From the NCBI GenBank assembly GCA_958295815.1, contig OY282374.1, positions 514,856-578,855 on the forward strand: DNA of 64,000 nt, in the 5' to 3' direction. The position numbers were made by a program, and so were the translations under genes. Within the stretch, counting starts at the first letter, position 1. The number at the start of each line of letters is the position of its first letter. Below the pieces are notes generated by a model, which searched no databases, had not been told where the DNA came from, and worked only from the letters and a program-made list of their open reading frames with translations. This DNA is from Candidatus Poribacteria bacterium (GTDB taxonomy: Bacteria; Poribacteria; WGA-4E; WGA-3G). Shown here one piece after another: positions 36,959 to 61,458 of the stretch.

Positions 36959-36982
36959 TGTGTCTTGTAGGTAGGTTGGTAT

Positions 36983-37028
36983 GCGGATTATCTCAGCTCA
37001 TTTTTTGTGAGATTATCCGCATTTTTTC
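36983..37028 (+). terminator. rho-independent terminator after the SDR gene
   Basis: perfect 13-bp inverted repeat gcggattatctca/tgagattatccgc followed by attttttcc. Confidence 0.65.
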
Positions 37029-37230
37029 CTTAACATCCTACAACTTTTGAAACTACCGTAGTAGGACTCGTAAACAACTTCTATTTTTCCAGTTGTAGTC
37101 GTTTTTCAGAAAAAAACGGCTCTTCTGTTTATCTTGATAGTGTACGCTTGTGTTCCGGTCATGCCGTGGTAAAGGATACCTTAAGATTTCAGTAGCAATT
37201 TCAACATAAACACTGCTTGTTGTTCGGCAT

Positions 37231-37245
37231 TGGCACGAAACTTGC
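37231..37245 (+). promoter_or_regulatory. sigma-54 (-24/-12) promoter TGGCAC-gaaac-TTGC
   Basis: exact consensus read from sequence. Confidence 0.55.
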
Positions 37246-37406
37246 CTAAGTACTAACATAGTTTGAACACAATGTTCTTGCTAACGAAACTCTAAGTGCT
37301 AACTTTACCTAAAAGGATGACTGAAAATGAAGATTATCTACGTTTTACTCACAACGAATAAGAAATCTTCGACGTAATGTAATTGGGCTGTTACAGAATA
37401 AATATA

Positions 37407-37482
37407 GGGAAACCAGTCTATGTACTGTTCTTGCAGAGAGGATATGTCTTTGCAAGATGAAACGTAGAACAGGTTTCCCTTT
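37407..37482 (+). other. long imperfect hairpin (gggaaacc...ggtttccc) followed by ttt; candidate terminator of a sigma-54-dependent small transcript
   Basis: 8-bp outer stem plus nested inner stems (ctgttc/gaacag, cttgca/tgcaag), T-run after 3' arm. Confidence 0.35.
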
Positions 37483-37797
37483 AGCATTTAAAAGGGGACT
37501 TTCTGTTTTATGGGATCTTGAGCGCGATGTGGAGTATTGCTTGGGTGGATACGTCAAAGTAGTGGAGTTAGCTGCGTCAATAAGACGTATTGCGTCAAAA
37601 TAGCGTGGTTAAAAATCGGTTTGAATTCGTAGCAATAATGGGGTTACGAGCGAGACTTTTATTCTTCAGTTTCAGGAAAACATCTCTTCTTTTTTTCCTG
37701 AATCGAGTGTTTACTTGTGTTTTAGGCACATCATAGTCGAAAAGACGTTTACGATTGTAACAGTTTTGACACAAATATTATGCTATGTTCAAGGGAA

Positions 37798-37812
37798 TGG
37801 CACGAAATTTGC
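37798..37812 (+). promoter_or_regulatory. sigma-54 promoter TGGCAC-gaaat-TTGC about 110 nt upstream of ORF 37925
   Basis: exact consensus read from sequence. Confidence 0.55.
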
Positions 37813-37924
37813 TCTATCAGTTTTATAGTATCATTATGAGAAACCATATACAACGTAGTTAACGTTGGTCAATCATCAGGAACAATGTCACATACTGGAT
37901 CTCTGAATCACAATTCTATAGAGT

Positions 37925-38701
37925 ATGATACCTGGTATAATACTATCGCCAATCCTTAATGAAGAGGGTAGGAGCAGGTGGGCAAAAATCTGCCTATTCC
38001 ACATTCACAGTGAGGTGAAACAAGTGAGAATTGTCATATATACAGCCGGTATTCTTGTCGTCTTAGCGGTTGCATGGACACTGTATCTTAACCTCGGCTT
38101 AAAAGACTTTGAAGCAAGGCTTTCACAGGTTCCTGCGTCTCCCACAACTCCACAGGAGACCTCGCAGGAGACAAAAGTTAGTGAGAGTGATACACAGCCT
38201 GAAACGGAAGTATCCAGTGATGTTTTGGAATTTGATGAGGCTGCTACTGTTGAAGATGTTTACCCGAAAATGGAATCAGAAGAGGATCAAGACTCCCTCG
38301 TTATCTGGACAGACTCGGATACCGAATCGTCCATTGATGCCGAAACAGCGATCGTTGAAGCACCTTTAACTCTTAACGAGGGCACACCGGTAGCAACAGT
38401 TGTGGGTCCCTGTGGTGAAATCTGCGAACCGTCGGAATCGAGTGTAGATATTCTAAGTCTCTCCAAGAATGAGCAGCGTGAGTTCTTCCGTGAAGGCTTG
38501 ATAAGGCGGTTCGGTGATATTCCTGAAGTCCACGTTTTCATTCATTACATGGAACTTGCACACAGTCATCAAACGATTTCAGAGAAAGAGGCTCTGGAAA
38601 ATGCCCGCGCGATTGCCACTCTGTTTCCAAATGAGGCAAACAAAAGACATCTCCAAGAAATGGAGTTGCATGTGGCGTCAAGTAGGGCAACGCGGAGATA
38701 G
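37925..38701 (+). CDS. hypothetical membrane-anchored acidic protein (single TM, Ser/Thr/Glu/Asp-rich extracytoplasmic region); start uncertain
   Basis: TM helix IVIYTAGILVVLAVAWTLYL followed by a low-complexity acidic region; no recognisable domain. Confidence 0.45.
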   Translation: MIPGIILSPILNEEGRSRWAKICLFHIHSEVKQVRIVIYTAGILVVLAVAWTLYLNLGLKDFEARLSQVPASPTTPQETSQETKVSESDTQPETEVSSDVLEFDEAATVEDVYPKMESEEDQDSLVIWTDSDTESSIDAETAIVEAPLTLNEGTPVATVVGPCGEICEPSESSVDILSLSKNEQREFFREGLIRRFGDIPEVHVFIHYMELAHSHQTISEKEALENARAIATLFPNEANKRHLQEMELHVASSRATRR

Positions 38702-38748
38702 CGATTCTTTTGATAAATAGCTTGTCAAAACAATTAATGCAAACAAAA

Positions 38749-38781
38749 ACGACAGGTTGCTCAATCTGTCGTTTTTGTTTT
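38749..38781 (+). terminator. rho-independent terminator (acgacag-gttgctcaat-ctgtcgt + ttttgtttt)
   Basis: 7-bp stem plus U-tract after ORF 37925-38701. Confidence 0.6.
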
Positions 38782-38954
38782 GAAAATTCGTCTAAGTAAG
38801 AAAATACGATTGCCATAGCGGCGGATGTCCCTGCGCCGAAACCTGAATCGAAAGTGAGCTGTTGGAGCGGAATTTTCAAAATGCGAAAGAAATGCGGATC
38901 TTCAAATCCAAACGGTTGATGTTACATACCATCAGAAATCCAACGGAGAGTCTG

Positions 38955-39671
38955 ATGAAATTAGTTATTATTCTAGGGATGTTTATTTTTTTGACTTTCT
39001 CTGCCTCAGCAGGGACGTTTGTAGAGACATTCGATGGTGGGGATTTGGATGAATGGCGGGAAATTATCTTGTTAGATCTTAAGATTAAGCCTGGGACTTG
39101 GGAAATTATTGACGGTGAACTTCACGGGACAATGCGTCATATAGGGCTGCCACGTCTGCTGACGACGGGTGATGAAAAGTGGCGTAATTACACCATTGAA
39201 GTTGATGTATTCCCTCTCGAAAAACACAGTCCCGGAAATATTGGAATAGCTGCGCGAATTCAGGGAACTGTCGGGATAATTAGTCTTATTGGGGATTATG
39301 CCTTCCCATTTCCGGCGAACCCCAACCCTGGACTAACAGTGACATGTTTTGGCGGTGATTTTCACGACAATATTCTCCACTTATTTGGGACTGAAGTTAG
39401 CCCATTGTTGGAATTAGGAACATGGTCTACTATGAAACTCCAGGTGAATGAAGATGTGTTTACGCTTTGGCTGAATGGTGAGCAAGTTTTGCTAGCGAGA
39501 GATGACACCTTTGACTTTTCTACAGGTCGAGTAGGTTTGGTTCTCACAGGTTATACGGTGAAGTTCGATGATTTGGTGATCACCGGCGATGGCATCCCAA
39601 ATAAGGGAAAATTATCAGTAACCCCGACAGACAAACTCGCGACAATGTGGAGTAGTTTGAAGCAGTTTTAA
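38955..39671 (+). CDS. secreted DUF1080-type (concanavalin-like / 3-keto-disaccharide hydrolase-like) protein with conserved C-terminal tail ...DKLATMWSSLKQF
   Basis: signal peptide MKLVIILGMFIFLTFSASA, WEIIDGELHG DUF1080-like motif; paralog of 41851-42597. Confidence 0.6.
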   Translation: MKLVIILGMFIFLTFSASAGTFVETFDGGDLDEWREIILLDLKIKPGTWEIIDGELHGTMRHIGLPRLLTTGDEKWRNYTIEVDVFPLEKHSPGNIGIAARIQGTVGIISLIGDYAFPFPANPNPGLTVTCFGGDFHDNILHLFGTEVSPLLELGTWSTMKLQVNEDVFTLWLNGEQVLLARDDTFDFSTGRVGLVLTGYTVKFDDLVITGDGIPNKGKLSVTPTDKLATMWSSLKQF

Positions 39672-39693
39672 ACTAAAAGAGTGAGGGATATCC

Positions 39694-40254
39694 ATGCTAA
39701 AATCTCCTGCTAAAATCCATCGTGTCCACAAATTTATACACAACAATAAGTTGTGTATCGCCGATCTAGATCGGTTCCGGTTGATAGAAATTAATCGGGT
39801 TGCGTGGGATGTCATCAATCTGAACGCAATGCAACATATCAACACATCACCTTTTTTTCTTATTAACGGCGATGTCCTTCTTGAGAACTTTTCACTACGA
39901 GAAATGTTAAAATGCTTTGATCAAAAGATGATGGGACTCCTGCTAAGTGTACGAGTAGATGATATTCGTCCTTACGGCGAAATCGTATCAGATAGCGATG
40001 GGAGAGTCCAAGCATTTCGTGAAAAACAGCCAATCTGCCGAGCTGGATACATTAACGGTGGCGTGTATCTCTTCAATCGAACTGTCATTGACGCGTTTCC
40101 TAAACACCGAGAGCATTTCTCTATAGAACGAGAGGTCTTCCCATACCTATCCAATCTTTACGCTTTGAAGACCGAAGCGAGTTGGATTGATATTGGAGTT
40201 CCAGAGCGATTAGCGTATGCGAGACAACACTTTCAAAACGGAGCCTGTCGATGA
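39694..40254 (+). CDS. sugar-phosphate nucleotidyltransferase (ManC/GMPP-like) lacking the N-terminal GxGTRL nucleotide-binding segment; possible truncated gene
   Basis: similarity begins about 50 residues into the family (FFLINGDVL ... GGVYLFNRTVID ... WIDIGVP); only 22 bp separate it from the upstream gene. Confidence 0.45.
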   Translation: MLKSPAKIHRVHKFIHNNKLCIADLDRFRLIEINRVAWDVINLNAMQHINTSPFFLINGDVLLENFSLREMLKCFDQKMMGLLLSVRVDDIRPYGEIVSDSDGRVQAFREKQPICRAGYINGGVYLFNRTVIDAFPKHREHFSIEREVFPYLSNLYALKTEASWIDIGVPERLAYARQHFQNGACR

Positions 40255-41720
40255 ATCCCGACATCTTTCGAGCATACGACATTCGCGGCATTCTTGGCGT
40301 GGACTTTGAACCGAAAGATTTTTATCGAATTGCCCGTGCTTTCGCTGCTCGATTTCAACCGAAAATTGTCGCCTTAGGACACGATGTCCGAGAAAGTTCT
40401 TCTCATCTATGGCAACAGGTCGCAGACGGACTCCGAGACTCGGGTGTTGACGTGCTTGATCTCGGTCAGATTTCAACCGATATGCTCTATTTCGCTGTAG
40501 TGCAATATCAGACGGATGGAGGTATTATCATTTCCGCCTCCCATAATCCAGCAGCTTATAATGGCATGAAACTGGTCCGTCAGCATGCTGTACCACTTTC
40601 TTCAGAAACCGGACTCTTTGATGTACGCGATGCCGTTGAAAGCAAAGACCAATTTGAAAAACATATCGCTAGCAAACGCGGCAATCTTCGGACTGCCCTG
40701 TTTTTGGACGCATACCTTGCACATCTGCGGTCTTTTGTGAATTTGCAGCAGCTTTTGAACAGGCGAATTGTCATCAATGCTAATGGTGGACTTGCTGGGC
40801 ATATTGCCGAATGCCTGTTAACATCAACACAGATTCAGATCTGTAAACGGCTATTTTGCAAGCCTGATGGAACATTCACCAACATTCCAGAGGATCGCCC
40901 CGACCCGCTACGCCCCGAGAATCGAAAATTAACGATAGAGACAGTCAAGCAGACAAGTGCGGATCTGGCGGTCGCATGGGACGTAGATGCAGATAGGTGC
41001 TTTTTTTATGATGAAAATGGAGAATTCGTTGAGGGATGTTACATTACGGCACTGCTCGCGGAATGCCTTCTTCAACAAAAACGAGGTGGAATTGTCATTT
41101 TTGACCCAAGAGCCATTTGGGCAGTGGAGAACTCCGTTACTTCTGCCAATGGCACACCACTTCTCAACCGATGCGGACACTCGTTTATCAAAATCCGCAT
41201 GCGGGAAACTGATGCCCTTTTTGCAGGAGAAACCAGTGGACACTACTATTTCCGTGACAATTTCTATGCTGATAACGGTATGCTCCCCTTTTTGTTTGTA
41301 CTTGAAATCCTCTGTGCAAAGAGGAGTTCACTCGCGGAACTGGTTAACCCTCTCCGAGCGAAATATCCGGTTTCTGGTGAAATCAACTTTGCGTTTGAAA
41401 GTCGTAATCTGATGCATGTTGCGATGAACACAGTCGAGCGTACACTGCACCAATTAGGGAGCCATTTCCACCTTGAAGCCCCTGTTGATGGCATGTCGGT
41501 CCGATTTCTCACAAACCGCCGAAGCGGCAATTTCAGTCGTCCAGAACCCGGCAGCTGGCGGTTCAATCTCCGAGAGTCAAACACTGAACCACTTTTGCGA
41601 TTCAATCTTGAAAACGTTGAGTCTCTCTCTCTTCATGTTGAAAAAACGGAGCAGCTTAGTGAAATGCTGGAGAACCTCGGCGGCAGACGAGAAACAAAAT
41701 TTCGTTGGGAAAATGGATAA
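40251..41720 (+). CDS. phosphomannomutase / phosphoglucomutase (alpha-D-phosphohexomutase)
   Basis: active-site SASHNPAAYNG, metal loop DVDADR, sugar loop GETSGH. Confidence 0.85.
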   Translation: MNPDIFRAYDIRGILGVDFEPKDFYRIARAFAARFQPKIVALGHDVRESSSHLWQQVADGLRDSGVDVLDLGQISTDMLYFAVVQYQTDGGIIISASHNPAAYNGMKLVRQHAVPLSSETGLFDVRDAVESKDQFEKHIASKRGNLRTALFLDAYLAHLRSFVNLQQLLNRRIVINANGGLAGHIAECLLTSTQIQICKRLFCKPDGTFTNIPEDRPDPLRPENRKLTIETVKQTSADLAVAWDVDADRCFFYDENGEFVEGCYITALLAECLLQQKRGGIVIFDPRAIWAVENSVTSANGTPLLNRCGHSFIKIRMRETDALFAGETSGHYYFRDNFYADNGMLPFLFVLEILCAKRSSLAELVNPLRAKYPVSGEINFAFESRNLMHVAMNTVERTLHQLGSHFHLEAPVDGMSVRFLTNRRSGNFSRPEPGSWRFNLRESNTEPLLRFNLENVESLSLHVEKTEQLSEMLENLGGRRETKFRWENG

Positions 41721-41850
41721 TTCCGTGAAATGAACCAAGAGAACTTCTCCTAGTAATGGTTTTGAATTATCTCATTATGCCAGGAAGTTCTCATTCTACG
41801 GTGTTGTTCTATTCTGAGGACTTACTTTGAACTCACGTCATAGGAGGATT

Positions 41851-42597
41851 ATGATGAAATCAATTATTATTATCGCCATACTTTTCCTTTTTCCCTTCTG
41901 TACATGGTCAGGCACGTTTCTGGAAACTTTCGATCACGGTGATCTTGAGGGTTGGCAGGAACTTAGTGCCCATGACGCTTTACCCGGTTCATGGGAGATC
42001 ATTGATGGCGAACTTCAGGCAATAATTCCTGGGGCATCTCGTTATCTCATAACGGGTGATGAGACATGGAAAGATTACAGTATCCAGGTTGATGTGATGC
42101 CTCTTGAAAAACCAGGTCCCGGAAATATCTCGATTCTCGCCCGTGTTAAAGGAAATTGGGCAGTTGATTGTGGGATTACCGACCTGATTTTCAATGATCC
42201 TGAATCAAAAGTGGTATGTTCTAGCCTTGATGTTCACGCAAATGAAGGCACCGTTCTGCACATTGAACCTTATCCGGCTTTAAGATCAAATAAATGGTCT
42301 AGACTGAAATTAAGTGTCAATGGAGATCACTTTAGTTTCTGGATAAATGAGAAGAAGATTGTGGAAACGGGAGGAGAGTTTGTCCTCATACAAGACGGTC
42401 GGGAATTTCAACTAAAGACAATGGATCTCTCACGCCACCCGGTAGACACAGGCGGGGCAGGTTTTGGTCTCGCGTATCATACAGCGAGATTCGATAATAT
42501 TACGATCATCGGCGATAGTATACCTGACAAAGGTAGATTACCAGTATCGCCTCAAGCAAACCTATCGACAATGTGGAGTAGTTTGAAGCAGTTTTAG
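41851..42597 (+). CDS. secreted DUF1080-type protein, paralog of 38955-39671, C-terminal tail ...NLSTMWSSLKQF
   Basis: RBS aggagg, signal peptide, SWEIIDGELQ motif, identical last 9 residues to the paralog. Confidence 0.6.
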   Translation: MMKSIIIIAILFLFPFCTWSGTFLETFDHGDLEGWQELSAHDALPGSWEIIDGELQAIIPGASRYLITGDETWKDYSIQVDVMPLEKPGPGNISILARVKGNWAVDCGITDLIFNDPESKVVCSSLDVHANEGTVLHIEPYPALRSNKWSRLKLSVNGDHFSFWINEKKIVETGGEFVLIQDGREFQLKTMDLSRHPVDTGGAGFGLAYHTARFDNITIIGDSIPDKGRLPVSPQANLSTMWSSLKQF

Positions 42598-42755
42598 AAG
42601 GTTGCCATTAAGAATGTCTCTGCTGGAATCAGATCTACATCAGCTGGGTAAATTCCACCACAATGATAGTTTATACATTGTTTAAATTTGAATATGCCTT
42701 TGGAGAAAAATAGGGTTACCGAGTTTTAAAACGACTTTGGATTGGAATAAATCAA

Positions 42756-43925
42756 ATGAGTTTCAGTGTTTTTGAACTATTAACGTACGAAAGAATGATT
42801 TTTTTCGCAATTTTGAGCTGTGGACTTTATGCCAGTTACACTGATTTCCGCTACGGGAAAATCGCTAACGGTTACACCGTGTTTTTAATCGGCTTTGGTA
42901 TAATCTGTCAAATGGTATTCGTAAGTGAAGGAGACATCACCTGGATACACAGTTGTGTTACCCTTTTCGGTGGATTAGGTATCTCTTTTGTATTGTTTTA
43001 TACCGGGATATGGGCAGCTGGGGATGCTAAACTGTTTTGGGGTATCAGTTTACTGATGCCACCGAGTGCTTTTACCCGTACCCCGGAGACGCAATTTTAT
43101 CCGTTGATCTTGATGGTGAATATTTTTCTCCTTTTTTTGGTCTATATCACATTACAGTCCGTCTATAAATTGACCTTTCAACAGCAGCGGATGCTGATTG
43201 TCAAAGGTTTTGTTGCACAAGCAAAGCAATTTCCGAAACGCCTTCTTCAGGTGCTTTCTTATGTCGGTGTAAGTGGACTGGCTTTTTATATTCCCGCACA
43301 CCTTGGTATAGAGTTAGATGTCGCAATCCGCATAGCTCTATTCATAGCGATTGCTTTTGCTTTCAATAGAGTAGTTGAAAAGTACATCCCTCAGAAATAC
43401 AGAATCACATTTCATATTCCGTTTCTCCTTTTAGCTCTCTTTTTGGCTATCCCTTCGCTAATTCAACTCGGTATTTTTATCGTCATTATCTTTGTTTTTC
43501 CATGGTTTCTAATCATGTTTGACTCTGTAGTCCGTTCCGTTTTTACAAAACAGGTTCCTATTGAAAGTCTTCGTCCTAACATGATCCCTGCGGAACGCAT
43601 CGTCAAAATTGAAGGACAAAACATGGACGATAAATACGTGAAAACTCCTGCAGGTTTTGCAAATCCGGCGCGAGATAGCATTATTGTGGATGTTTCATCT
43701 GAAGGGTTAACATCGCCCCAGGTTGAGCACTTGCGCCAACTTGCTGCAGAAGGTAGTTTGAAGGAATACGAAAATAGACTGCTTATTCAGGAAAAAATCC
43801 CATTTGCTTTGATGATTGTTTTGGGCGGCTTAGTGACACTACCTGCAAAGGGGATTGCTTATTCGTTTTTTCAGAGTGCAGAGATGCATCAGGTTTTGGA
43901 GAGAATAGGTTCGTTCTTTTCTTGA
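42756..43925 (+). CDS. A24-family (CpaA/TadV-type prepilin peptidase-like) aspartyl protease domain fused to a long C-terminal membrane/soluble extension
   Basis: YTDFRYGKIAN (first catalytic Asp motif D-x-R-x-x-x-I-P/A-N) and WAAGDAKLF (GGGDVKL-like second Asp); 389 aa versus about 170 aa for CpaA. Confidence 0.5.
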   Translation: MSFSVFELLTYERMIFFAILSCGLYASYTDFRYGKIANGYTVFLIGFGIICQMVFVSEGDITWIHSCVTLFGGLGISFVLFYTGIWAAGDAKLFWGISLLMPPSAFTRTPETQFYPLILMVNIFLLFLVYITLQSVYKLTFQQQRMLIVKGFVAQAKQFPKRLLQVLSYVGVSGLAFYIPAHLGIELDVAIRIALFIAIAFAFNRVVEKYIPQKYRITFHIPFLLLALFLAIPSLIQLGIFIVIIFVFPWFLIMFDSVVRSVFTKQVPIESLRPNMIPAERIVKIEGQNMDDKYVKTPAGFANPARDSIIVDVSSEGLTSPQVEHLRQLAAEGSLKEYENRLLIQEKIPFALMIVLGGLVTLPAKGIAYSFFQSAEMHQVLERIGSFFS

Positions 43926-44771
43926 TTAAAAAATAGCTGGAGTAATCGAGAATATTTACCTTACGTTACTCTCTGGTGTTTTTTGCCTTTGAGTTCTTGG
44001 GTATCCGTACTCTACAAATCTTATCATGTACGGATGATATATAATGACTGTCCCTCCTTGTATACATATCCTCCGTACCTACCACTTGTCACTCACCTTA
44101 CATATTTCCTTCTATTAATTGTGGATTCCACAAGGAAATGCCGATATACAAATCAATAGTGGAACAACTTTGGAGTATATGGGCAATTGACTTGCTATGC
44201 AATCCTTTCTATGCGTGAAATTTTTGCAGAATTTTATGGTATATAGTGGTAATTTTTGCGTGCTAATATCGGAAATGAATTACAAATGAATTTCATTATA
44301 ATGTTTTCAAGAAAAGATAATTACTTTGTTTCTTTTTGATAAACCCAGTGTGTGTCTGTGTTTTAGGGGAGTCTAAGCAATAAATATATACCATTATATG
44401 ATTTTTATATAAATAATGTATATTTATATATCAATTGGCACTAAATTTGCTTGTCTTAATATAGCAGTTCTCACTAAATTTGCATGCTTTTATTAACAAG
44501 GGCGTACTTTGATTTTAATTGAATAAAGTTGTTATCGACTGTGTGTAACTTTCTGAGGAATATATTTGCGGTGTTGATTGCTGATAGTTATCAGTGAAGT
44601 TGTTTTCGTCATAGATATTCAACTGGAAACAACGGTTTCTGACTCACCACTCATACGCGCTAAGTCCTTGAATCAAACTTACATTCGCAAGGAGCGCGCA
44701 TTGCAACGTGACAGGCAGTGAATTTCTTGAACCTGTTCAAAAGCATTAGATGAATCGGGTAGTGTGTAAAA
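43926..44771. other. about 850-bp AT-rich non-coding island (A/T tracts, sigma-54 promoter) upstream of a sigma-54 activator gene
   Basis: no credible ORF; very low GC; direct repeat cactaaatttgc x2. Confidence 0.6.
44436..44450 (+). promoter_or_regulatory. sigma-54 promoter TGGCAC-taaat-TTGC
   Basis: exact consensus; a degenerate second copy (ctcactaaatttgc) lies 40 nt downstream. Confidence 0.55.
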
Positions 44772-46031
44772 ATGAACGACCGAATCAGAGAAGAGAATAC
44801 CTCTAATGAAGTACACATTGTTATTATTAGTGATGTGCCTGATACAGCAAGAAAATTAAAGGACGAGCTTGAACAGAACGGATATAAAGTCTCTATTGCT
44901 ACCGATCGCGACACACAAATCTCGCTCCGCGCTGGCGATGCAATCTTGCGGGTGACCTACGAGGATAACGCTAACTTGCTAATTTCAGGACAACAAAGAG
45001 ATAGCGTGTTTGCGATTGTGGAAGAGGCTCAGTCTGCGCTGAGAAGAGATAAATTTTCAGGGGATTACGGAGAAATTATTGGAGAAAGTTCCCAAATTTT
45101 TGAGGTTCTACAGCAAATTGAAGATCTTGCAGCTACGCCGTTGAGAGTCCTAATTTCTGGTGAAACCGGAACAGGTAAGGGGGTGGTCGCGCGTGCCCTG
45201 CATGAAAATAGTGGCAGATCGGGTGAAATGGTTTCTATCAACTGTGCAGCAATACCAGTAAACTTACTGGAAAGTGAGTTGTTTGGACATGAGAGAGGCG
45301 CATTTACAAGTGCCGATGCCCGACGTATTGGTAGGTTTGAAAGGGCTCACAATGGGACGCTGTTTCTTGATGAAATCGTTGAGATGCCGCTCTCCATGCA
45401 ACCGAAGTTGTTACGCGCAATTGAGGAAGGCGAAATTGAACGCGTTGGTGGTGAAAAGCCAATTGCAGTGAATGTCCGAATTGTGGCGGCTACCAACAAG
45501 GATCTTGCGCGAGCTGTTAAAGATGGTATATTTCGTGAAGACCTCTATTATCGATTGAATGTTGCCTCTATATCTCTACCGATGTTATCAGAGAGAAAGG
45601 AGGATATCTATGTGTTAGTGTCGCATTTCCTTGAGAAATATCGACGATTTTTCAGTCCCTCAATTTTGCAAATCGCTAAAAGTACGCGAGCTCTCCTTGA
45701 AACCTATCCATGGCCCGGGAATGTGCGAGAGTTGGAGAATGCTATTGAGAGAGCTTCTTACCTTATTAAAAAAGGAGTGCTCTTACCGGAGCACCTACCA
45801 GAAGAGATTACGGCGTACCAAAGACAACCTGTGGATGTCTCCAAAGAGATTTCTACATTTGAAGACGAGCAAAAGGTGAGCGTGCCTCTTGGAACGAAGT
45901 TTGACGCAATGGAAGAAGCTTTCATTCGTACCACTTTGGAATGGCATGATGGGAATCGAACAAAAACGGCGGAGACACTCGGGATTGGTATACGAACGTT
46001 ACAGAGGAAGTTGAAAAAATATAACGCTTAA
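44772..46031 (+). CDS. sigma-54-dependent transcriptional activator (bEBP; AAA+ with GAFTSA variant of GAFTGA, C-terminal Fis-type HTH), atypical N-terminal domain
   Basis: Walker A GETGTGKG, GAFTSA, ESELFGHE, C-terminal HTH RTKTAETLGIGIRTLQRKLK. Confidence 0.85.
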   Translation: MNDRIREENTSNEVHIVIISDVPDTARKLKDELEQNGYKVSIATDRDTQISLRAGDAILRVTYEDNANLLISGQQRDSVFAIVEEAQSALRRDKFSGDYGEIIGESSQIFEVLQQIEDLAATPLRVLISGETGTGKGVVARALHENSGRSGEMVSINCAAIPVNLLESELFGHERGAFTSADARRIGRFERAHNGTLFLDEIVEMPLSMQPKLLRAIEEGEIERVGGEKPIAVNVRIVAATNKDLARAVKDGIFREDLYYRLNVASISLPMLSERKEDIYVLVSHFLEKYRRFFSPSILQIAKSTRALLETYPWPGNVRELENAIERASYLIKKGVLLPEHLPEEITAYQRQPVDVSKEISTFEDEQKVSVPLGTKFDAMEEAFIRTTLEWHDGNRTKTAETLGIGIRTLQRKLKKYNA

Positions 46032-46134
46032 TTTCGGTTATCAGAGAATATGATACTTTTCTCTTTGTCCAAATTTTCCCTTGTTTAAACAGAAGCAACA
46101 TGTTAAAATGGTGTGGATGTAGTAACTGAGGAGA

Positions 46135-56278: not shown

Positions 56279-57067
56279 TTACCGCTTCAGTTTACCCCAT
56301 GTCGTTGTCAGTTTGCCGCGAGCAGAAACATCAAGCGTTTCGTTGATGATTTTCTGGATGTCAGCTTCAGAGAGTGCGTAGTTGGCTAACATCAATTCAT
56401 CGATTCGGCCCTGAAAGAAACGGGGGCAGCATCCATTATTTTCGCCTCCAAATTTCAACGATCTGTCCGGCATACTCCGACCAGGTCCCTTCTGTGAGAT
56501 AACTTTGCCATCAGATTCCCCGTTGATATAGAAACGCGCTTCGCTCCCATCCCACGCAAGCGCAACATGGGTCCACTCTTTCGCCTTCAGCTTACCGTCA
56601 GAAATATGGTAGCCGGGGTTATTGGTGTCGTAGAAATAGTAGGCAAGTTGGCCGGCACCGGGTTCGATTTGCAGATAATAGGTGTTTTTGAAGAAAATGG
56701 TGAATTTATTCTCTTGACCACCCGCTGGAAGTTCGTCAGGATAAACCCACGCCATCATCGTAATCTCTTCGTCCATATCGACTTCATCGGAGTGCGCAAC
56801 CTCAATAAAATCGGCTTTACCGACCTTACCAGCCATTTGCACAGCGTCCCCAGAAATGCCTTCAGCCCACTTTATATCGCCGTTGAATTCGCCGACTAAG
56901 CCAGCCGTTTCATCTTCAGTCTTATCCCCTTTGCCTTCGTCGAAATGCCAGACATATAACTTCTCACCGAGTTGTTTCACGTTGCCCTTTCCACCTGCAG
57001 TGAATCCTACTTGGCAGATAGATAGGCTGAGAAAAACGCATAGCATTAGAAAAACTTTGGTTCTCAT
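56279..57067 (-). CDS. secreted LamG-like (Laminin_G_3 / concanavalin-like) protein with C-terminal tail ...GKLTTTWGKLKR
   Basis: signal peptide MRTKVFLMLCVFLSLSI, LYVWHFDEGKGD LamG_3-like onset, RBS ggagg. Confidence 0.65.
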   Translation of the reverse strand: MRTKVFLMLCVFLSLSICQVGFTAGGKGNVKQLGEKLYVWHFDEGKGDKTEDETAGLVGEFNGDIKWAEGISGDAVQMAGKVGKADFIEVAHSDEVDMDEEITMMAWVYPDELPAGGQENKFTIFFKNTYYLQIEPGAGQLAYYFYDTNNPGYHISDGKLKAKEWTHVALAWDGSEARFYINGESDGKVISQKGPGRSMPDRSLKFGGENNGCCPRFFQGRIDELMLANYALSEADIQKIINETLDVSARGKLTTTWGKLKR

Positions 57068-57186
57068 CAGTAATTCCTCCGTATAGAATAAGAGAAGGGC
57101 GATGTAAGAACCCGCCCTTCCGGTAGAACTTGGCAATAGGCAGGCTTTGTGACGCTGCCACTATAACAGAGGGTGTTTAGCTGCTC

Positions 57187-57957
57187 CTACATTTTGAGCT
57201 TGCCCCATGTTGTAGCAAGTTTGTCACCGGGGTCCACAGCGAAGAAAACGCCGTTTTCCATATCCTGATTAATCTCATCAACAGAAAGGGCGCGATTGTA
57301 GATGGCTACCTCATCAACCAAGCCAATCATACCGGGGAGTCCCGTTTGTGCCTTGCCGATGCGGAAGACGACTTCAATGCTGTTAATTTTGCCCTTTGGT
57401 GGTGCGAATTCAACGTCCAATTTACCATCAATGTATTGACGAATCATATCCCCATCGAAGGTAGAAGAGACGTGGTGCCATGCTTCCAATTTCGGCTTAA
57501 TGGTCTGCTTGTTCCGGGAACCTTGCCATCCTCCGATGTTAATCCAGGTCTCAATTTGCGGAGCACCGGTAAACTGTGCGCTCCACTGGAGGCAATAACC
57601 ACCGACGTTTGCTGAACTCCTACGTCCCATCAGGTTGGAGTCCCCTTGAGATTCTTCAGGGAAGTACCATCCCTGAATTGTCAGTTCATCCGTGATGTCG
57701 AGTTCAGGGACTGCGTCAACCTCTACAAACTGATCGGAATTTTCAAGATGAACAGCACCGCCAATTTTGCCATCTTTCGACCAGACTGCACCTTCCAAGG
57801 TGCCTTCAATATTATTTCCACTTACATCTTTCACCTTGCCGCCGTCGTCTTCATCAAAAGTGAAGTACAACATGAGTGCCTTATCGTCATTTATTGCCCA
57901 CGTGTTGACACTTAGGCTCAAGGCGATAAGGCAGAAAACAGTGATAACGGATTTCAT
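57187..57957 (-). CDS. secreted LamG-like protein, paralog of 56279-57067, C-terminal tail ...GDKLATTWGKLKM
   Basis: signal peptide MKSVITVFCLIALSLSVNTWA, LMLYFTFDEDDGGKV LamG_3-like onset. Confidence 0.65.
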   Translation of the reverse strand: MKSVITVFCLIALSLSVNTWAINDDKALMLYFTFDEDDGGKVKDVSGNNIEGTLEGAVWSKDGKIGGAVHLENSDQFVEVDAVPELDITDELTIQGWYFPEESQGDSNLMGRRSSANVGGYCLQWSAQFTGAPQIETWINIGGWQGSRNKQTIKPKLEAWHHVSSTFDGDMIRQYIDGKLDVEFAPPKGKINSIEVVFRIGKAQTGLPGMIGLVDEVAIYNRALSVDEINQDMENGVFFAVDPGDKLATTWGKLKM

Positions 57958-57993
57958 TGAGAGTGAACTCCTTTTTTAGCGGGTGTCGGTTAT

Positions 57994-58104
57994 CGGTTAT
58001 CAGTTATGAGTTAAAGAGGGCACTGTAACAATTGACCGCTTTCTGGCGTCCCCAAGTTTGGGTAGATTGTTACAAAACGTCTCTTAACCGACAACTGATA
58101 ACCG
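57994..58104. repeat. nested inverted repeats forming an approximately 110-nt imperfect stem-loop (cggttatcagtt / aactgataaccg outer; tgtaacaat / attgttaca inner; cccaa / ttggg core)
   Basis: read from sequence, between the TPP-enzyme gene end and the LamG gene start. Confidence 0.5.
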
Positions 58105-58119
58105 AAGACTGGTCGCCAT

Positions 58120-59766
58120 TTAGAAACTGGAAATCTGAATTTCCTTTGAAGTGATAAACTCAAGGAGTGCCGGAACGCCTTCCTGAGTCTTCTGGATGCC
58201 GCGTTGAATAGCTGGAATAATCTGATCAGGTGTTTCGACACGCTCACCGTAGCCACCGAATGCTTTTGCCATGTCTGCATAGTGCCCAGAGATGTCTGTA
58301 GACCTGAATTTTTCGGTAGATACGGGCATAATCGGAATCTCAATCGCCATAGAGAAGTTATTGAAAAGCACTGACAGAATTGGGATTCTTTCTCGCACAG
58401 CAGTCTCGAAATCCATACCGGTAAAACCAATAGCGGCGTCACCCCAGACGTTGACACAGAGATGATCGGGTCTTGCCAGTTTCGCACCCATTGCGAGTCC
58501 GAGACCGTAACCGAGCTGCGTCGTTTTGCCCCAACCGATATAGGTGAGTGGTGCAACAGACTGCCAGAACGGAGACATTTGGTCGCGTGGACTCCCCGCA
58601 TCGTGCGTAATAATCGTATTTTTCACATCAACAGTATGAAGCAGATCCTGGATAACGCGATACGGCGTCATCGGCACTTCATCAGAGGTGAGTTTAGCCT
58701 TCCACTCTTCGAGCCATTCGGCTTTGACCGCACTAATTTCTCCAGTGACAGCTGCCGTCTGCTCCTCAGATGCGCCATTGGAGCGGTCGCGAACTGCTTC
58801 TATTAATCCTTCTAAAATCAAGCCTGCATCGCCGACGAGGGCAATATCAACAGGAACGTCTTTGTTGATATCCGCCGGATCTAATGTAGCGTGAATAACC
58901 CGTTTCCCCTCAGGAATCCTGACCCCGAATCCGGTTCGAGTGAAACTACATCCGATACCGAGAATCAGGTCAGTTTTTTGGAGGAAATGATGCACCGGTT
59001 TCGGAATCGCGCGTCCGCCAGAACCGAGTGCCAAAGGATGATCTTCAGGAAACGCACTCTTACCAGCCAAACTCGTCGTCACAGCAGCCCCAAGCAGCTC
59101 CGCCAATTCTTTCAAGGAGTCCCAAGCTTGTGCGTAATGTACACCTTGTCCTGCGTAGATGACGGGACACTCGGCATTGAGTAGTGCTTCTGCAGCTTCT
59201 TCGATTGCCTCGGTGTCAGGTCTGTAACGTACGGTAGGGACCGGTGACGGATCGAAAGAATCCGAAATTTCCTCACCAAAGATGTCCGATGGGAATTCAA
59301 CGAGCGCAGGACGAGGTCTGCCGTTCCGTACCTGTGTAAAGGCACGCCGCATGGCTTCCGGAACTGATTCAGGCGTCGTAACCTGTTCACACGATTTTGT
59401 CACGTGCCGATAATTCAGGGCAGAATTAAAATTCGGTTGGATTTGTGTTAGACCTCGGGAATAGCCACCCGGCAATACCACAATCGGTGCGGAATCGCCA
59501 AACGCTTGTGCGACACCACCGAATGCGTTTTCGGAACCCGGTCCACTCTGCATGCAGAACACACCGATCTTTTCGCCAGAGGTCATTCGGCTCATCGCAT
59601 CTGCCATGTGAAGTCCAATCCGTTCCTGTCTAACGATAATCGGGCGAATATCCAACTTCGCTGCTGCCTCGATTATTGGGTTGACGGGATAGGCGAATAA
59701 GTACTCTACTCCCTCCGCTTTAAGCACTTTTGCAACTGCATCGACAACTTTCATATTTTTCTCCAA
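58120..59766 (-). CDS. thiamine-diphosphate-dependent enzyme (acetolactate synthase large subunit / sulfoacetaldehyde acetyltransferase-like)
   Basis: three-domain TPP enzyme layout; GDAAIGF TPP-binding motif region. Confidence 0.75.
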   Translation of the reverse strand: MEKNMKVVDAVAKVLKAEGVEYLFAYPVNPIIEAAAKLDIRPIIVRQERIGLHMADAMSRMTSGEKIGVFCMQSGPGSENAFGGVAQAFGDSAPIVVLPGGYSRGLTQIQPNFNSALNYRHVTKSCEQVTTPESVPEAMRRAFTQVRNGRPRPALVEFPSDIFGEEISDSFDPSPVPTVRYRPDTEAIEEAAEALLNAECPVIYAGQGVHYAQAWDSLKELAELLGAAVTTSLAGKSAFPEDHPLALGSGGRAIPKPVHHFLQKTDLILGIGCSFTRTGFGVRIPEGKRVIHATLDPADINKDVPVDIALVGDAGLILEGLIEAVRDRSNGASEEQTAAVTGEISAVKAEWLEEWKAKLTSDEVPMTPYRVIQDLLHTVDVKNTIITHDAGSPRDQMSPFWQSVAPLTYIGWGKTTQLGYGLGLAMGAKLARPDHLCVNVWGDAAIGFTGMDFETAVRERIPILSVLFNNFSMAIEIPIMPVSTEKFRSTDISGHYADMAKAFGGYGERVETPDQIIPAIQRGIQKTQEGVPALLEFITSKEIQISSF

Positions 59767-59811
59767 TCCGTAGTCGCGATCTTGGGATCGCCTTATGTCT
59801 ATAGAAAAGAC

Positions 59812-60624
59812 CTATGAGGTCGGGTTCGTTGGTGTTCCAGCATCCATCACAAGAGGAAAATGGTCACCTACCAATTTATCACCATCGTTAACGGTAACAA
59901 AAGGTTTCATAACGTGGCTTCCGCTGGCATCGTATAGCGTTTCACCTGTCATATAATGCACTGCAATCGCACGCCGAGGACTACCACTGGTGTTGTCGTG
60001 CGAACCGTGCCATGTTAAGGAGTGATGGTAATGAACGTGTCCTTTCGGTACCGGGCAGAGTTCCACGGCTAATTCGTTATCTTCAAAGTGGTCGGGCATG
60101 GAATGGATGTCCTTGACGGAATGCAGAAACCCAATCTGATTGCCCCAATGATAAGAGCCAGGGACCATACGCATACATCCATTACTTTCATCAACATCGT
60201 CCAAGGCGACCCAAGCACTTACCTGACTCGTTTTTGGCGTAAGAATCGGCCAATACGGTGAATCCTGATGCCACATATTTACACCGCCCACTTTCGGTGG
60301 TTTATATTGGATCTGGTCGTGCCAGACGCGTAACTCTGTTGCTGATGTTAGTTGCCCGATTTCTTCTACGATAATTGGGTTATAAACGAGTCGATGGTAG
60401 GCTGGACTCGCCTCCCAAATGTTAACAACTTGCCAGACTGGACTCTCTTCTTTGCGACCGAGATTAGCGATGTGCACCGGCTGCGAAATATCCGCTTTCT
60501 CGTAATCGTCAATAACACGTGCCAATTCTGACCGTAGTTCCTCAACCTGATCATCGCTTAAAACACGGCTTCCAAGGAGAAAGCCTTTCTCACGAAATGT
60601 GTCAACTTGGGTTTGGTTGAGCAT
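59812..60624 (-). CDS. phytanoyl-CoA dioxygenase family protein (tandem paralog 1)
   Basis: WHQDSPYW...ALDD...HYHH...WHGSHDN; about 85% identical to the neighbour. Confidence 0.75.
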   Translation of the reverse strand: MLNQTQVDTFREKGFLLGSRVLSDDQVEELRSELARVIDDYEKADISQPVHIANLGRKEESPVWQVVNIWEASPAYHRLVYNPIIVEEIGQLTSATELRVWHDQIQYKPPKVGGVNMWHQDSPYWPILTPKTSQVSAWVALDDVDESNGCMRMVPGSYHWGNQIGFLHSVKDIHSMPDHFEDNELAVELCPVPKGHVHYHHSLTWHGSHDNTSGSPRRAIAVHYMTGETLYDASGSHVMKPFVTVNDGDKLVGDHFPLVMDAGTPTNPTS

Positions 60625-60645
60625 ACTTCCCTCCCATAAAAAGAC

Positions 60646-61458
60646 TTATATGTTAGCCTTCGTCGGCTTTCCCGCATCCATCACAAGCGGAAAATGGTGA
60701 CCTGCCAATTTATTACCACCATTAACGGTAACAAAACGTTTCATGATGTGATTTCCGCTTTCATCGTAGATGGTTTCGCTCGTCATATAATGCACCGCAA
60801 TTGCCCGACGCGGACTACCGCTGGCGTTGTCATGCGACCCGTGCCATGTTAAAGCGTGGTGATAGTGAACGTGTCCCTTCGGTACAGGACAGAGTTCTAC
60901 CTCCAACTCATTATCTTCAAAGCGATCTGGCAATGAATCAATGTCTGCGACCTCGCGCAAAAATGGCATCTGACTACCCCAGTGATAGGAACCGGGGACC
61001 ATACTCATACACCCGTTGCTTTCGTCAGCATCGTCCAACGCAACCCAAGCACTCACCTGACTCGTTTTCGGCATGAGAATTCCCCACAACGGCGAATCTT
61101 GATGCCAACGGTTGACACCACCAACTTTTGGCGGCTTGTATTGGATTTGGTCGTGCCAGACGCGCAACTCCGTCGCCGACATGAGTTGTCCAATCTCTTC
61201 CACAATGGTCGGGTTGTGAACGAGTCGGTGATAGGCAGCACTCGCCTCCCAAATGTTAACGATTTGCCAAACCGGGCTTTCTTCTTTACCGCCGAGGTTG
61301 GCAATACGAACGGGCTGCGGAACCTCAAGTTTTTCGTAGCTATCAATGACCCGCGCCAATTCAGCACGCAATTCATCAACCTGTTCATCGCTTAATACGC
61401 GGTTTCCGAGAAGAAAGCCTTTTTTACGAAATGTGTCAACCTGAGTTTGGTTGAGCAT
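60646..61458 (-). CDS. phytanoyl-CoA dioxygenase family protein (tandem paralog 2)
   Basis: same motifs; identical first 11 residues MLNQTQVDTFR. Confidence 0.75.
   Translation of the reverse strand: MLNQTQVDTFRKKGFLLGNRVLSDEQVDELRAELARVIDSYEKLEVPQPVRIANLGGKEESPVWQIVNIWEASAAYHRLVHNPTIVEEIGQLMSATELRVWHDQIQYKPPKVGGVNRWHQDSPLWGILMPKTSQVSAWVALDDADESNGCMSMVPGSYHWGSQMPFLREVADIDSLPDRFEDNELEVELCPVPKGHVHYHHALTWHGSHDNASGSPRRAIAVHYMTSETIYDESGNHIMKRFVTVNGGNKLAGHHFPLVMDAGKPTKANI

Follow-up and report, generated by a model that had tools for sequence, protein, structure and literature searches.

What does an archaeal-type membrane peptidase do in a bacterial gene cluster that encodes no pilus? The question is raised by a stretch of 64,000 nucleotides (the window) from a Candidatus Poribacteria bacterium (contig OY282374.1, positions 514,856 to 578,855), in which the gene for an A24 aspartyl peptidase stands beside genes for sugar-nucleotide enzymes and for two exported DUF1080 proteins with a common C-terminal tail. 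An earlier note on this DNA had described the peptidase domain as fused to an extension of about 280 residues and had put forward, as a speculation, that the protein processes these tails. In the reading favoured here, the cluster is a decayed copy of a cassette, the peptidase cuts the N-terminal leader of small precursor proteins termed c3, and the tail is a separate tag. Taken as a whole, this reading is considered probable rather than assured.

The gene order described in the note holds. ORF calls, Pfam and NCBIfam place six open reading frames (ORFs) on the + strand:

37925..38701, + strand: glutamate-rich orphan protein with one N-terminal hydrophobic helix (ORF call; no family match).
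38955..39671, + strand: DUF1080-A, with a Sec signal peptide, a PF06439 beta-sandwich and a C-terminal tail at about 39612-39668 (Pfam, homologue alignment, AlphaFold2).
39694..40254, + strand: chimeric ORF, a deletion scar, formerly "truncated ManC" (identity to the GT4 glycosyltransferase and the NTP-transferase of locus L003; partial Pfam profile).
40251..41720, + strand: phosphomannomutase/phosphoglucomutase (PMM), intact (Pfam, NCBIfam).
41851..42597, + strand: DUF1080-B, with its tail at about 42538-42594 (Pfam; paralogue of DUF1080-A).
42756..43925, + strand: FlaK/EppA-type A24 aspartyl membrane peptidase, 389 residues (Pfam, AlphaFold2, alignment).

The peptidase carries two Pfam domains. 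Peptidase_A24 (PF01478) covers residues 18-128 (E 5.4e-9, 36.9 bits against a cut-off of 26.5), and Arc_PepC (PF06819) covers residues 241-337 (E 2.1e-6, 28.3 bits against 23.4). The supposedly unknown extension of about 280 residues consists of further transmembrane helices and Arc_PepC, a known archaeal architecture. The protein thus has the two-domain architecture of FlaK and EppA and is not a new fusion. Alignments of 14 and of 57 homologues show the catalytic D30 (42843-42845) and G89-D90 (43023-43025) to be invariant. The aspartate motif is A-A-G-D in this protein and P-G-D in its paralogues, and the strict G-x-G-D is absent. Judged by its sequence, the protein is an intact aspartyl membrane peptidase of the GxGD class.

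Its AlphaFold2 model (predicted local distance difference test, pLDDT, 75) has about ten transmembrane helices, with a beta-domain at residues 264-349 lying between helices. The region coding for this Arc_PepC beta-domain is approximately 43476-43766. The domain is predicted to be cytoplasmic, because the helices were counted from FlaK-like cytoplasmic aspartates and the positive-inside rule was applied. In a Foldseek search, FlaK (3S0X) was the sole protease among the top matches (probability 0.44, TM-score 0.46 on the target, E about 1), and sequence and profile searches of the PDB with the window peptidase did not match FlaK. No NCBIfam model matched at E up to 0.01, and the level of the EppA equivalog (NF053826) was not reached; a Chloroflexota homologue scored 26 bits against this model, whose cut-off is 450.

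The family is large. From 1.84 billion entries its profile retrieves 3,091 representatives with E-values up to 1e-3 and 1,485 with E-values up to 1e-10, most of them full length; the latter number (about 1,500) counts clusters at 50% identity. Relatives are named "prepilin peptidase", "FlaK" or "A24 family peptidase C-terminal domain-containing protein" in the databases. With FlaK, EppA and PibD (MEROPS A24) the window peptidase shares both Pfam domains, two invariant aspartates, the second of them in G-D, a soluble beta-domain and the lack of an N-methyltransferase domain. It differs from FlaK in having about ten predicted transmembrane helices instead of six, and A-G-D or P-G-D instead of GxGD. 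Unlike these archaeal enzymes it is bacterial, has several paralogues per genome and has no pilus or archaellum assembly genes nearby.

One explanation is that the protein is an ordinary prepilin peptidase, serving a Tad or type IV pilus or a type II secretion system whose genes lie in another part of the genome. This would agree with its A24 membership, with the names "prepilin peptidase" and "FlaK" given to some relatives, and with one archaeal-type relative that lies in a pilus locus. However, a scan with the peptidase, using one genome per species, yielded 78 related loci, nearly all from Poribacteria and a few from Chloroflexota, and neither these loci nor the window contain a pilus ATPase (T2SSE Walker-A motif) or a platform protein (T2SSF homologue). 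Moreover, there are several paralogues per genome, each inside the same non-pilus cassette. Judged on these loci and the window, the explanation is regarded as extremely unlikely. The 64-kb window also has no Flp-like, Class_IIIsignal or c3-leader ORF, and the earlier observation that Flp pilin and Tad genes are lacking near the peptidase stands. CpaA and TadV resemble the window protein in having an A24 catalytic core without a methyltransferase domain, but they are short single-domain proteins of tad loci, whereas the protein described here has 389 residues, an Arc_PepC domain and no tad genes around it.

The 78 loci, 1.49 Mb in total, were used to define the genes that accompany the peptidase. 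ORFs were called, the proteins were clustered (c1, c3 and so on are clusters), and families were assigned with Pfam and NCBIfam. The peptidase family is expanded, with several loci per Poribacteria genome and up to five or more. The commoner cassette has the order GT4, GT4, repeats of c3 plus c1, methyltransferase, A24 peptidase, c4, further repeats of c3 plus c1, in some cases an NTP-transferase, PMM and c5. A second arrangement has the order DUF1080-tail, GT4, GT4, transglutaminase-like protein, ABC-2 permease, methyltransferase, NTP-transferase, PMM and A24 peptidase, and it is this one that hosts the orthologues of the window peptidase, at 60-80% identity. Going by cluster membership only, no type-2 paralogue was apparent on the window's own 5.13-Mb contig. 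Minimal cassettes without GT4 also occur (for example L032, L034, L035 and L042); they consist of c3, a PD40-tail protein, the peptidase and a haem/DsbA protein.

The link to sugar-nucleotide genes that the note had seen is conserved: GT4 pairs, with enzymes of about 560 residues each, occur in 52 of the 78 loci, and PMM in 33; the PMM of the window falls into one protein cluster with PMM from 36 loci. In the second GT4 enzyme (GT-b), the N-terminal 90 residues or so match the N-domain of a maturase of the radical S-adenosylmethionine (rSAM) type related to ScfB (E 2.7e-5). Cluster c1 is a PD40/TolB-like propeller; of its 103 members, 86 have the tail motif at the C-terminus. PADLOC gave no defence-family match besides a generic methyltransferase domain. 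NCBIfam, PADLOC and the searchable literature yielded no account of either the cassette or the tail, and literature searches for Poribacteria with a prepilin peptidase or sorting signal, or for A24 enzymes with precursor peptides, found nothing relevant. The wider cassette appears to be undescribed so far.

Several further cassette proteins deserve a description of their own. Directly downstream of the peptidase gene lies c4 (L024:11582-13432 and 59 other loci), a protein of about 620 residues which combines a UshA-like domain that bears a CGC motif (NCBIfam "UshA-like (seleno)protein", E 5e-61) with four CxxCH haem sites and a domain of the DsbA kind; its multihaem part is cytochrome c554-like. 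It is plausible that c4 is a dedicated oxidative-folding catalyst for the cysteine-rich c3 proteins. Many cassettes end with c5 (L010:91-3063 and 43 other loci), a protein of about 1000 residues with an N-terminal extracytoplasmic-function sigma domain, a membrane segment and a large propeller of the sortilin/BNR type. Such proteins may be one-component trans-envelope regulators. In nine Poribacterial loci an archaeal-type oligosaccharyltransferase resembling STT3 and AglB (cluster c17, L059:12763-14793) is encoded a few genes downstream of the peptidase (PF02516, E 5e-13; TIGR04154, E 6e-15, below cut-off), and it is a second "archaeal" component of the cassette.

How does the window relate to these cassettes? 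The answer lies in the chimeric ORF. Its residues 1-45 are 58% identical to residues 3-47 of the first GT4 enzyme of L003, and residues 44-186 are 75% identical to residues 108-250 of the L003 NTP-transferase. The product matches only positions 100-241 of the 245 in the NTP_transferase profile, and the complete fold of a ManC-like enzyme, including the N-terminal nucleotide-binding region, is not present in it. The gene described as a truncated ManC-like nucleotidyltransferase is an in-frame fusion of a GT4 N-terminus with an NTP-transferase C-terminus. The two-part identity therefore shows an in-frame deletion of about 7 kb. This event joined GT4 codons 1-45 to NTP-transferase codon 108, with the loss of the two GT4 genes and those for the transglutaminase-like protein, the ABC-2 permease and the methyltransferase.

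The PMM gene behind the scar starts within the last codons of the chimeric ORF, with a 4-nucleotide overlap (ATGA) that is the same in intact cassettes. Domains I-III of PGM_PMM are strong (E 1e-19 to 5e-31) and domain IV is weak, so that all four are present. The best NCBIfam match is of the CpsG type (E 2e-114), with a score of 383 that lies below the equivalog cut-off of 801. The gene product is a phosphomannomutase/phosphoglucomutase, with mannose specificity only putative. The suggestion that PMM supplies a glycan is plausible for intact cassettes; it does not extend easily to the window, where the GT4 genes are deleted and the NTP-transferase is without its N-terminal 107 residues. A DUF1080 gene between PMM and the peptidase is found only in the window among the loci compared.

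The cluster lies on a variable segment:

36963..46070, no strand: island of 9.1 kb with the whole cluster and a sigma-54 activator gene (absent in two relatives; low GC).

In these relatives (L161 and L163, about 83-86% nucleotide identity, collinear on both sides) a short-chain dehydrogenase/reductase gene abuts a DUF1501 gene, with about 100-190 bp between the aligned blocks. The GC content of the island is 0.41-0.46, compared with 0.47-0.49 in the flanks. The window cluster thus reads as a degenerate copy of a Poribacteria-wide, multi-copy cassette, located on an island that some close relatives lack. Because this copy arose by deletion and its island is dispensable, the gene order here should not be taken for a minimal functional unit.

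A second case of cassette presence and absence variation is the PNPOx-TrkH-TrkA-GcvP locus. In one genome it holds a full cassette (DUF1080, GT4, GT4 and so on to A24; L002 and L008 compared), and in L167 (6771-10708) no more than three DUF1080-tail genes in tandem, with the nuo operon after them. Transposase genes of the IS605 OrfB/TnpB and DDE types adjoin several cassettes or DUF1080-tail clusters (L018:2-1144 and eight other loci, c16; L168 4292-5240), which fits the insertion-deletion polymorphism of these regions.

It may be asked whether anything in the window still works. The genes could be leftovers of a decaying island whose juxtaposition has no function now, with the peptidase as a relic. 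Five genes were lost through the deletion, which also inactivated the NTP-transferase, the island is lacking in two relatives, there is no c3 substrate in cis, and the first gene is an orphan. Yet the peptidase is full length and keeps every invariant residue of its family; PMM, both DUF1080 genes and the sigma-54 activator gene are intact; two exact sigma-54 sites are retained; and the deletion is in frame and has kept the ATGA overlap with PMM. A complete loss of function is accordingly thought improbable. Under the favoured reading, the window peptidase, which has no substrate in cis, would act in trans on c3 proteins from elsewhere or would be on the way to loss.

The orphan first gene encodes 33 glutamates and 12 aspartates among 258 residues. 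It has no Pfam or NCBIfam match and no homologue in any other peptidase locus. The likelier start is GTG at 38024, which is preceded by GAGGTG. Its product contains "NEEGRS" and was considered as a degenerate c3 precursor, but the c3-leader hidden Markov model (HMM) gave no match with filters off, and the likelier start lies downstream of the "NEEGRS" segment.

What, then, would the peptidase cleave? The best candidate is the leader of the c3 proteins. These proteins have about 85 residues, with a leader (MKKNLRGKIREFLKSEEGRVGVKSPLTLGVASGSLLLAQAMVTPSAQA) conserved at 85-99% per position and a variable cysteine-rich core. The leader follows the pattern F-L-x-S-E-E-G-x-V-G-x-K and continues into a hydrophobic segment. 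According to the leader HMM, c3-leader ORFs accompany the peptidase in 66 of the 78 loci. The earlier proposal of a non-pilin substrate is therefore retained with c3 as the candidate, and abandoned for the tail proteins. A c3 ORF lies at most 1 kb upstream of 60 of 93 tail genes, and the numbers of the two per locus are correlated (rho 0.72).

Further evidence comes from other lineages. In Chloroflexota, the gene immediately upstream of the peptidase encodes an HxS-repeat protein whose leader is the same (NCBIfam HxsA3), and the locus continues with an HxsD-like gene. On a groundwater contig (L172), a 25%-identical peptidase is found with HxsD, an HxsB-like rSAM maturase and a 285-residue protein bearing FLTSEEGKISKKS, which matches the c3 HMM (E 2.5e-7). 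The same contig (421-11067) also encodes a second rSAM/SPASM enzyme and a PDZ protein. An archaeal-type relative of the peptidase adjoins T2SSF and Class_IIIsignal pilins. Tail proteins were not seen at the Chloroflexota and groundwater loci. Across these lineages the constant partner of the peptidase family is therefore an N-terminal, class-III-like leader, conserved between phyla, while maturases and cores vary. Since the relatives sit beside leader-bearing or class III signal proteins and not beside tail proteins, the c3 leader is the likely substrate.

The biochemistry of FlaK offers a model. FlaK cleaves FlaB2 after Gly12 and requires a glycine at P3' (KKG/ASG, the slash marking the cut) (PMC4985597), and the catalytic aspartates of A24/FlaK enzymes are located at the cytoplasmic face of the membrane (PMC4985597). 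The c3 proteins have glycines at the putative P1 and P3' positions (EEG/RVG) and a hydrophobic helix after them. Small proteins of the related cassettes thus share with archaellins a charged N-region, an invariant glycine, a glycine at P3' and a hydrophobic helix, and a distant relative of the peptidase stands, as noted, beside Class_IIIsignal pilins. They differ in being acidic before the glycine and in having cysteine-rich, knottin-like heads.

The peptidase is most likely a FlaK/EppA-type leader peptidase for precursors of the c3/HxsA3 type. It would remove the short charged N-region of the leader at the cytoplasmic face of the membrane. With the consensus MKKNLRGKIREFLKSEEG/RVGVK followed by hydrophobic residues, the cut would fall after the invariant glycine, with the second glycine at P3' as in FlaB2. 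The soluble Arc_PepC domain may help to recognise the c3 N-region. The sugar-nucleotide enzymes would feed the two GT4 enzymes, which probably glycosylate a peptide or protein encoded in the cassette, because the N-domain resembles the peptide-binding domain of rSAM/SPASM maturases. One ORF of L068 (16583-17731) has a c3 leader (MKNNLRGKIREFMASEEGRVGVKGPLTL...) running straight into a PD40-tail protein, either as a natural fusion or through a deletion within a c3-c1 pair.

The Flp leader has the sequence F-L-K-D-E-S-G (Caulobacter PilA). It resembles the c3 motif F-L-x-S-E-E-G, although c3 lacks the EY after the glycine.

A number of points weigh against cleavage of c3 by the peptidase, which is proposed from adjacency and sequence pattern. 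The c3 proteins have an AxA site after the hydrophobic segment, and signal peptidase I could suffice for their processing. The conserved N-region could serve otherwise, for instance in binding to the GT4 N-domain. Unlike archaellins, c3 is acidic before the glycine (SEEG) and charged after it (R at P1', K at P5'). The likeness to FlaK in fold (probability 0.44) and to EppA in sequence (26 bits, in the Chloroflexota member only) is weak. Finally, the examined DNA of the nearest cassettes (L001-L006 and L008) has no c3 ORF, and the only cassette-specific exported protein there is the DUF1080-tail protein.

The leader also leads to the HXS system. In E. coli, N-terminally cleaved HxsA is exported to the periplasm, where it blocks the entry of phage DNA (PMC13128918), and its cleavage route is described as non-canonical (PMC13128918). 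As the published E. coli system lacks an A24 gene, the analogy serves as no more than a lead. The c3/c20 leader matches the N-terminal part of NCBIfam HxsA3 (NF038309), weakly for the Poribacterial c3 leader (24 bits against a cut-off of 65); the GT4 N-domain is homologous to the N-domains of rSAM maturases; and the same peptidase family occurs with HxsA3-like precursors, HxsD and an HxsB-like rSAM enzyme in Chloroflexota and on the groundwater contig. Differences are that Poribacterial cassettes are without rSAM maturases, that HxsD was not detected in them, and that they have cysteine-rich cores instead of HxS repeats. Glycosyltransferases, a methyltransferase and the haem/DsbA protein stand where the maturases would be. 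The window has no HxsA precursor, HxsB/HxsC or HxsD, and full sets were found only in the distant loci L016 and L172. The L172 locus suggests that the N-terminal processing enzyme of some HXS variants belongs to this peptidase family.

Clusters for glycocin-type RiPPs (peptides that are made by the ribosome and modified after translation) are another parallel. They share small cysteine-rich precursors with a conserved leader and a variable core, glycosyltransferases and a thiol-disulfide oxidoreductase. In the Poribacterial cassettes, however, the glycosyltransferases are GT4 and not GT2 enzymes of the SunS type, the leader contains a membrane-spanning segment, C39 peptidase and ABC exporter are lacking, and the precursors are paired with large tail-bearing proteins.

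The remaining question is the role of the tail. Both DUF1080 proteins of the cluster end in ...L[AS]TMWSSLKQF. DUF1080-A lies in an ORF of 38862-39671, with homologues placing its start at 38955 (238 residues); PF06439 matches above cut-off (E 4.4e-13), and the tail is present in 72 of 76 homologues. DUF1080-B, in an ORF of 41827-42597 with a start placed by homologues at about 41851, is 42% identical to it and also matches above cut-off (E 1.3e-11). A third occurrence lies outside the cluster:

56279..57957, - strand: two tandem LamG (Laminin_G_3) proteins with the same tail (Pfam, C-terminal motif).

These LamG proteins end in KL[TA]TTWGKLK[RM]. The general form of the tail is ...V-[ST]-P-x(3-5)-L-x-T-T-W-G-x-[LIV]-K-x(1-7)-COOH, with 5-11 residues after the tryptophan. 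In the 1.49 Mb around peptidase genes there are 113 tail proteins, and 46 of the 78 loci have at least one. Six or more unrelated folds are represented among the carriers: PD40, DUF1080, two LamG groups, Kelch and a cluster without assignment. In 0.99 Mb of non-Poribacterial DNA, with 1340 long ORFs, the search pattern had no match, and it had none in 42 kb of Poribacterial control DNA. The former came from a metagenome scan with the window's CoaBC, which returned almost only non-Poribacterial contigs, and serves as a control for pattern specificity only; the latter came from loci of CoaBC orthologues syntenic with the window. Co-occurrence of peptidase and tail proteins, the check proposed in the note, is thus real at the level of neighbourhoods (46 of 78 loci against 0 of 1340 control ORFs). 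A comparison of tail genes inside and outside the cassette was uninformative, because the "outside" genes abut cassette borders.

The tail has no hydrophobic helix and no basic anchor. In the AlphaFold2 model of the DUF1080 protein, most of the sandwich exceeds pLDDT 85, beginning near residue 80, whereas the tail (220-238) is below 50 and predicted to be disordered. The idea that the tail is an integral strand of the DUF1080 fold was rejected on account of this predicted disorder and its presence on at least six unrelated folds. Because the carriers have ordinary Sec signal peptides (AxA), the tail presumably ends up in the periplasm. None of the NCBIfam models of C-terminal domains match it.

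Could the A24-like protein act as a sortase-like processor of DUF1080, LamG and PD40 tails, coupled to mannose-based glycosylation, as first suggested? The concentration of tail proteins near the peptidase is what this would predict, and a tail protein is the only obvious exported product in the window and the nearest cassettes. The combination of an exopolysaccharide (EPS)-like locus, a sigma-54 activator and a C-terminal signal also recalls PEP-CTERM/exosortase, with weak similarity to TIGR02915 (NCBIfam). Against this, the tail is a disordered peptide of about 20 residues with neither transmembrane segment nor basic anchor, and its likely periplasmic position puts it across the membrane from the active sites of A24/FlaK enzymes, which face the cytoplasm (PMC4985597). 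In three of three independent contexts, DUF1080-tail genes cluster together with no A24 gene within 10 kb, and relatives of the peptidase elsewhere pair with leader or class III proteins where no tail proteins were seen. Tail processing by the peptidase is judged very unlikely and the proposal is given up.

The same properties separate the tail from known C-terminal sorting systems (PEP-CTERM/exosortase, LPXTG/sortase and GlyGly-CTERM/rhombosortase). As in these systems, a short C-terminal motif occurs on unrelated exported proteins of one lineage, and some carriers adjoin genes for a membrane protease, glycosyltransferases and a sigma-54 activator. The tail differs in having no transmembrane helix or basic cluster, no sortase-family enzyme is present, and A24 enzymes carry their active site at the wrong membrane face.

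The main alternative for the role of the tail involves the GT4 pair. The tail could be its recognition or acceptor tag, with cytoplasmic O-glycosylation of the threonine-rich TTWG before Sec export; the true functional connection would then join the tail to the sugar enzymes, and the peptidase would be a separate module. GT4 genes start only 10-23 bp past the stop of DUF1080-tail genes (L003 875/892, L007 14678/14688; at the window scar 39671/39694). The GT4 N-domain resembles a peptide-binding domain of maturases, the tail is disordered and rich in threonine and serine, and PMM and NTP-transferase are conserved in the cassette. Minimal cassettes, however, have no GT4 (L032, L034, L035, L042), tail genes also occur far from any GT4, and the maturase-type domain conventionally binds an N-terminal leader such as that of c3. 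This alternative is held to be unlikely, although worth keeping in mind.

Under the favoured reading, the tail is most likely a separate tag of partner proteins. It would be a portable, disordered motif on Sec-exported lectin and propeller proteins, not a cleavage site of the peptidase, and it would mark its carriers as partners of c3, as a docking, sorting or glycosylation tag. Genes for tail-bearing LamG and DUF1080 proteins repeatedly adjoin genes for PhyH (Fe/2OG dioxygenase). In the window (56279-61458, - strand) the two LamG-tail genes are accompanied by a thiamine pyrophosphate enzyme and two PhyH paralogues, and similar cases are found at L164 18748-20470 and L169 8856-11648. A functional link between PhyH enzymes and tail proteins is possible.

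The island also holds three promoter-like elements and one regulator gene:

37231..37246, + strand: sigma-54-like -24/-12 element with one mismatch, TGGCACGAAACTTGCC (intergenic motif match).
37798..37813, + strand: exact sigma-54 -24/-12 consensus upstream of the cluster's first gene (motif match).
44436..44451, + strand: exact sigma-54 consensus upstream of the activator gene (motif match).
44772..46031, + strand: sigma-54-dependent transcriptional activator (AAA+ plus HTH_8), within the island (Pfam, NCBIfam, clustering).

The exact consensus TGGCACN5TTGCW occurs twice in the window, compared with 0.06 expected, both times in intergenic DNA on the + strand. Sigma-54 promoters ahead of the cluster, as reported before, are borne out by the exact site at 37798 and the near-match at 37231. 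The activator family (cluster c14) recurs beside cassettes in nine loci, including type-2 cassettes. Sigma-54 promoters were rejected as a general feature of the cassette, with only 16 consensus sites in 1.5 Mb and no consistent position.

Two other parts of the window are of separate interest. A bacterial RNA repair gene pair, Hen1 (Hen1_L plus methyltransferase) and Pnkp (kinase-phosphatase-ligase), lies at 5875-9854 on the + strand. A 650-residue membrane protein of the DUF6785 plus DUF6784 family (E 3e-150) is encoded at 11185-13137 on the - strand.

Joined together, the observations allow a more far-reaching proposal, which is offered tentatively and is doubtful as a whole. Poribacteria would have an undescribed maturation and export system, with an rSAM-based form in some Chloroflexota and groundwater bacteria. 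An archaeal-type class III signal peptidase would be dedicated to leaders of the HxsA3 type, and in Poribacteria GT4 enzymes that carry the peptide-binding domain of a maturase would have taken the place of the rSAM maturases. Out of this would come mini-proteins, glycosylated and rich in disulfides, in fixed pairs with lectins or propellers that bear the tail as a new portable C-terminal motif (V-S-P...T-T-W-G-x-L-K). Cassettes that are multi-copy, polymorphic for insertions and deletions, and hypervariable in their cores would fit envelope defence or host interaction, analogous to the phage-entry barrier of HXS.

If this is true, archaeal-type A24 peptidases, a large family, would have a role outside pili and would be linked to the recently characterised periplasmic effectors of HXS. 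It would also mean that glycosyltransferases have borrowed a recognition domain from RiPP maturases, and that many exported proteins of an uncultivated phylum of sponge symbionts carry a new C-terminal tag.

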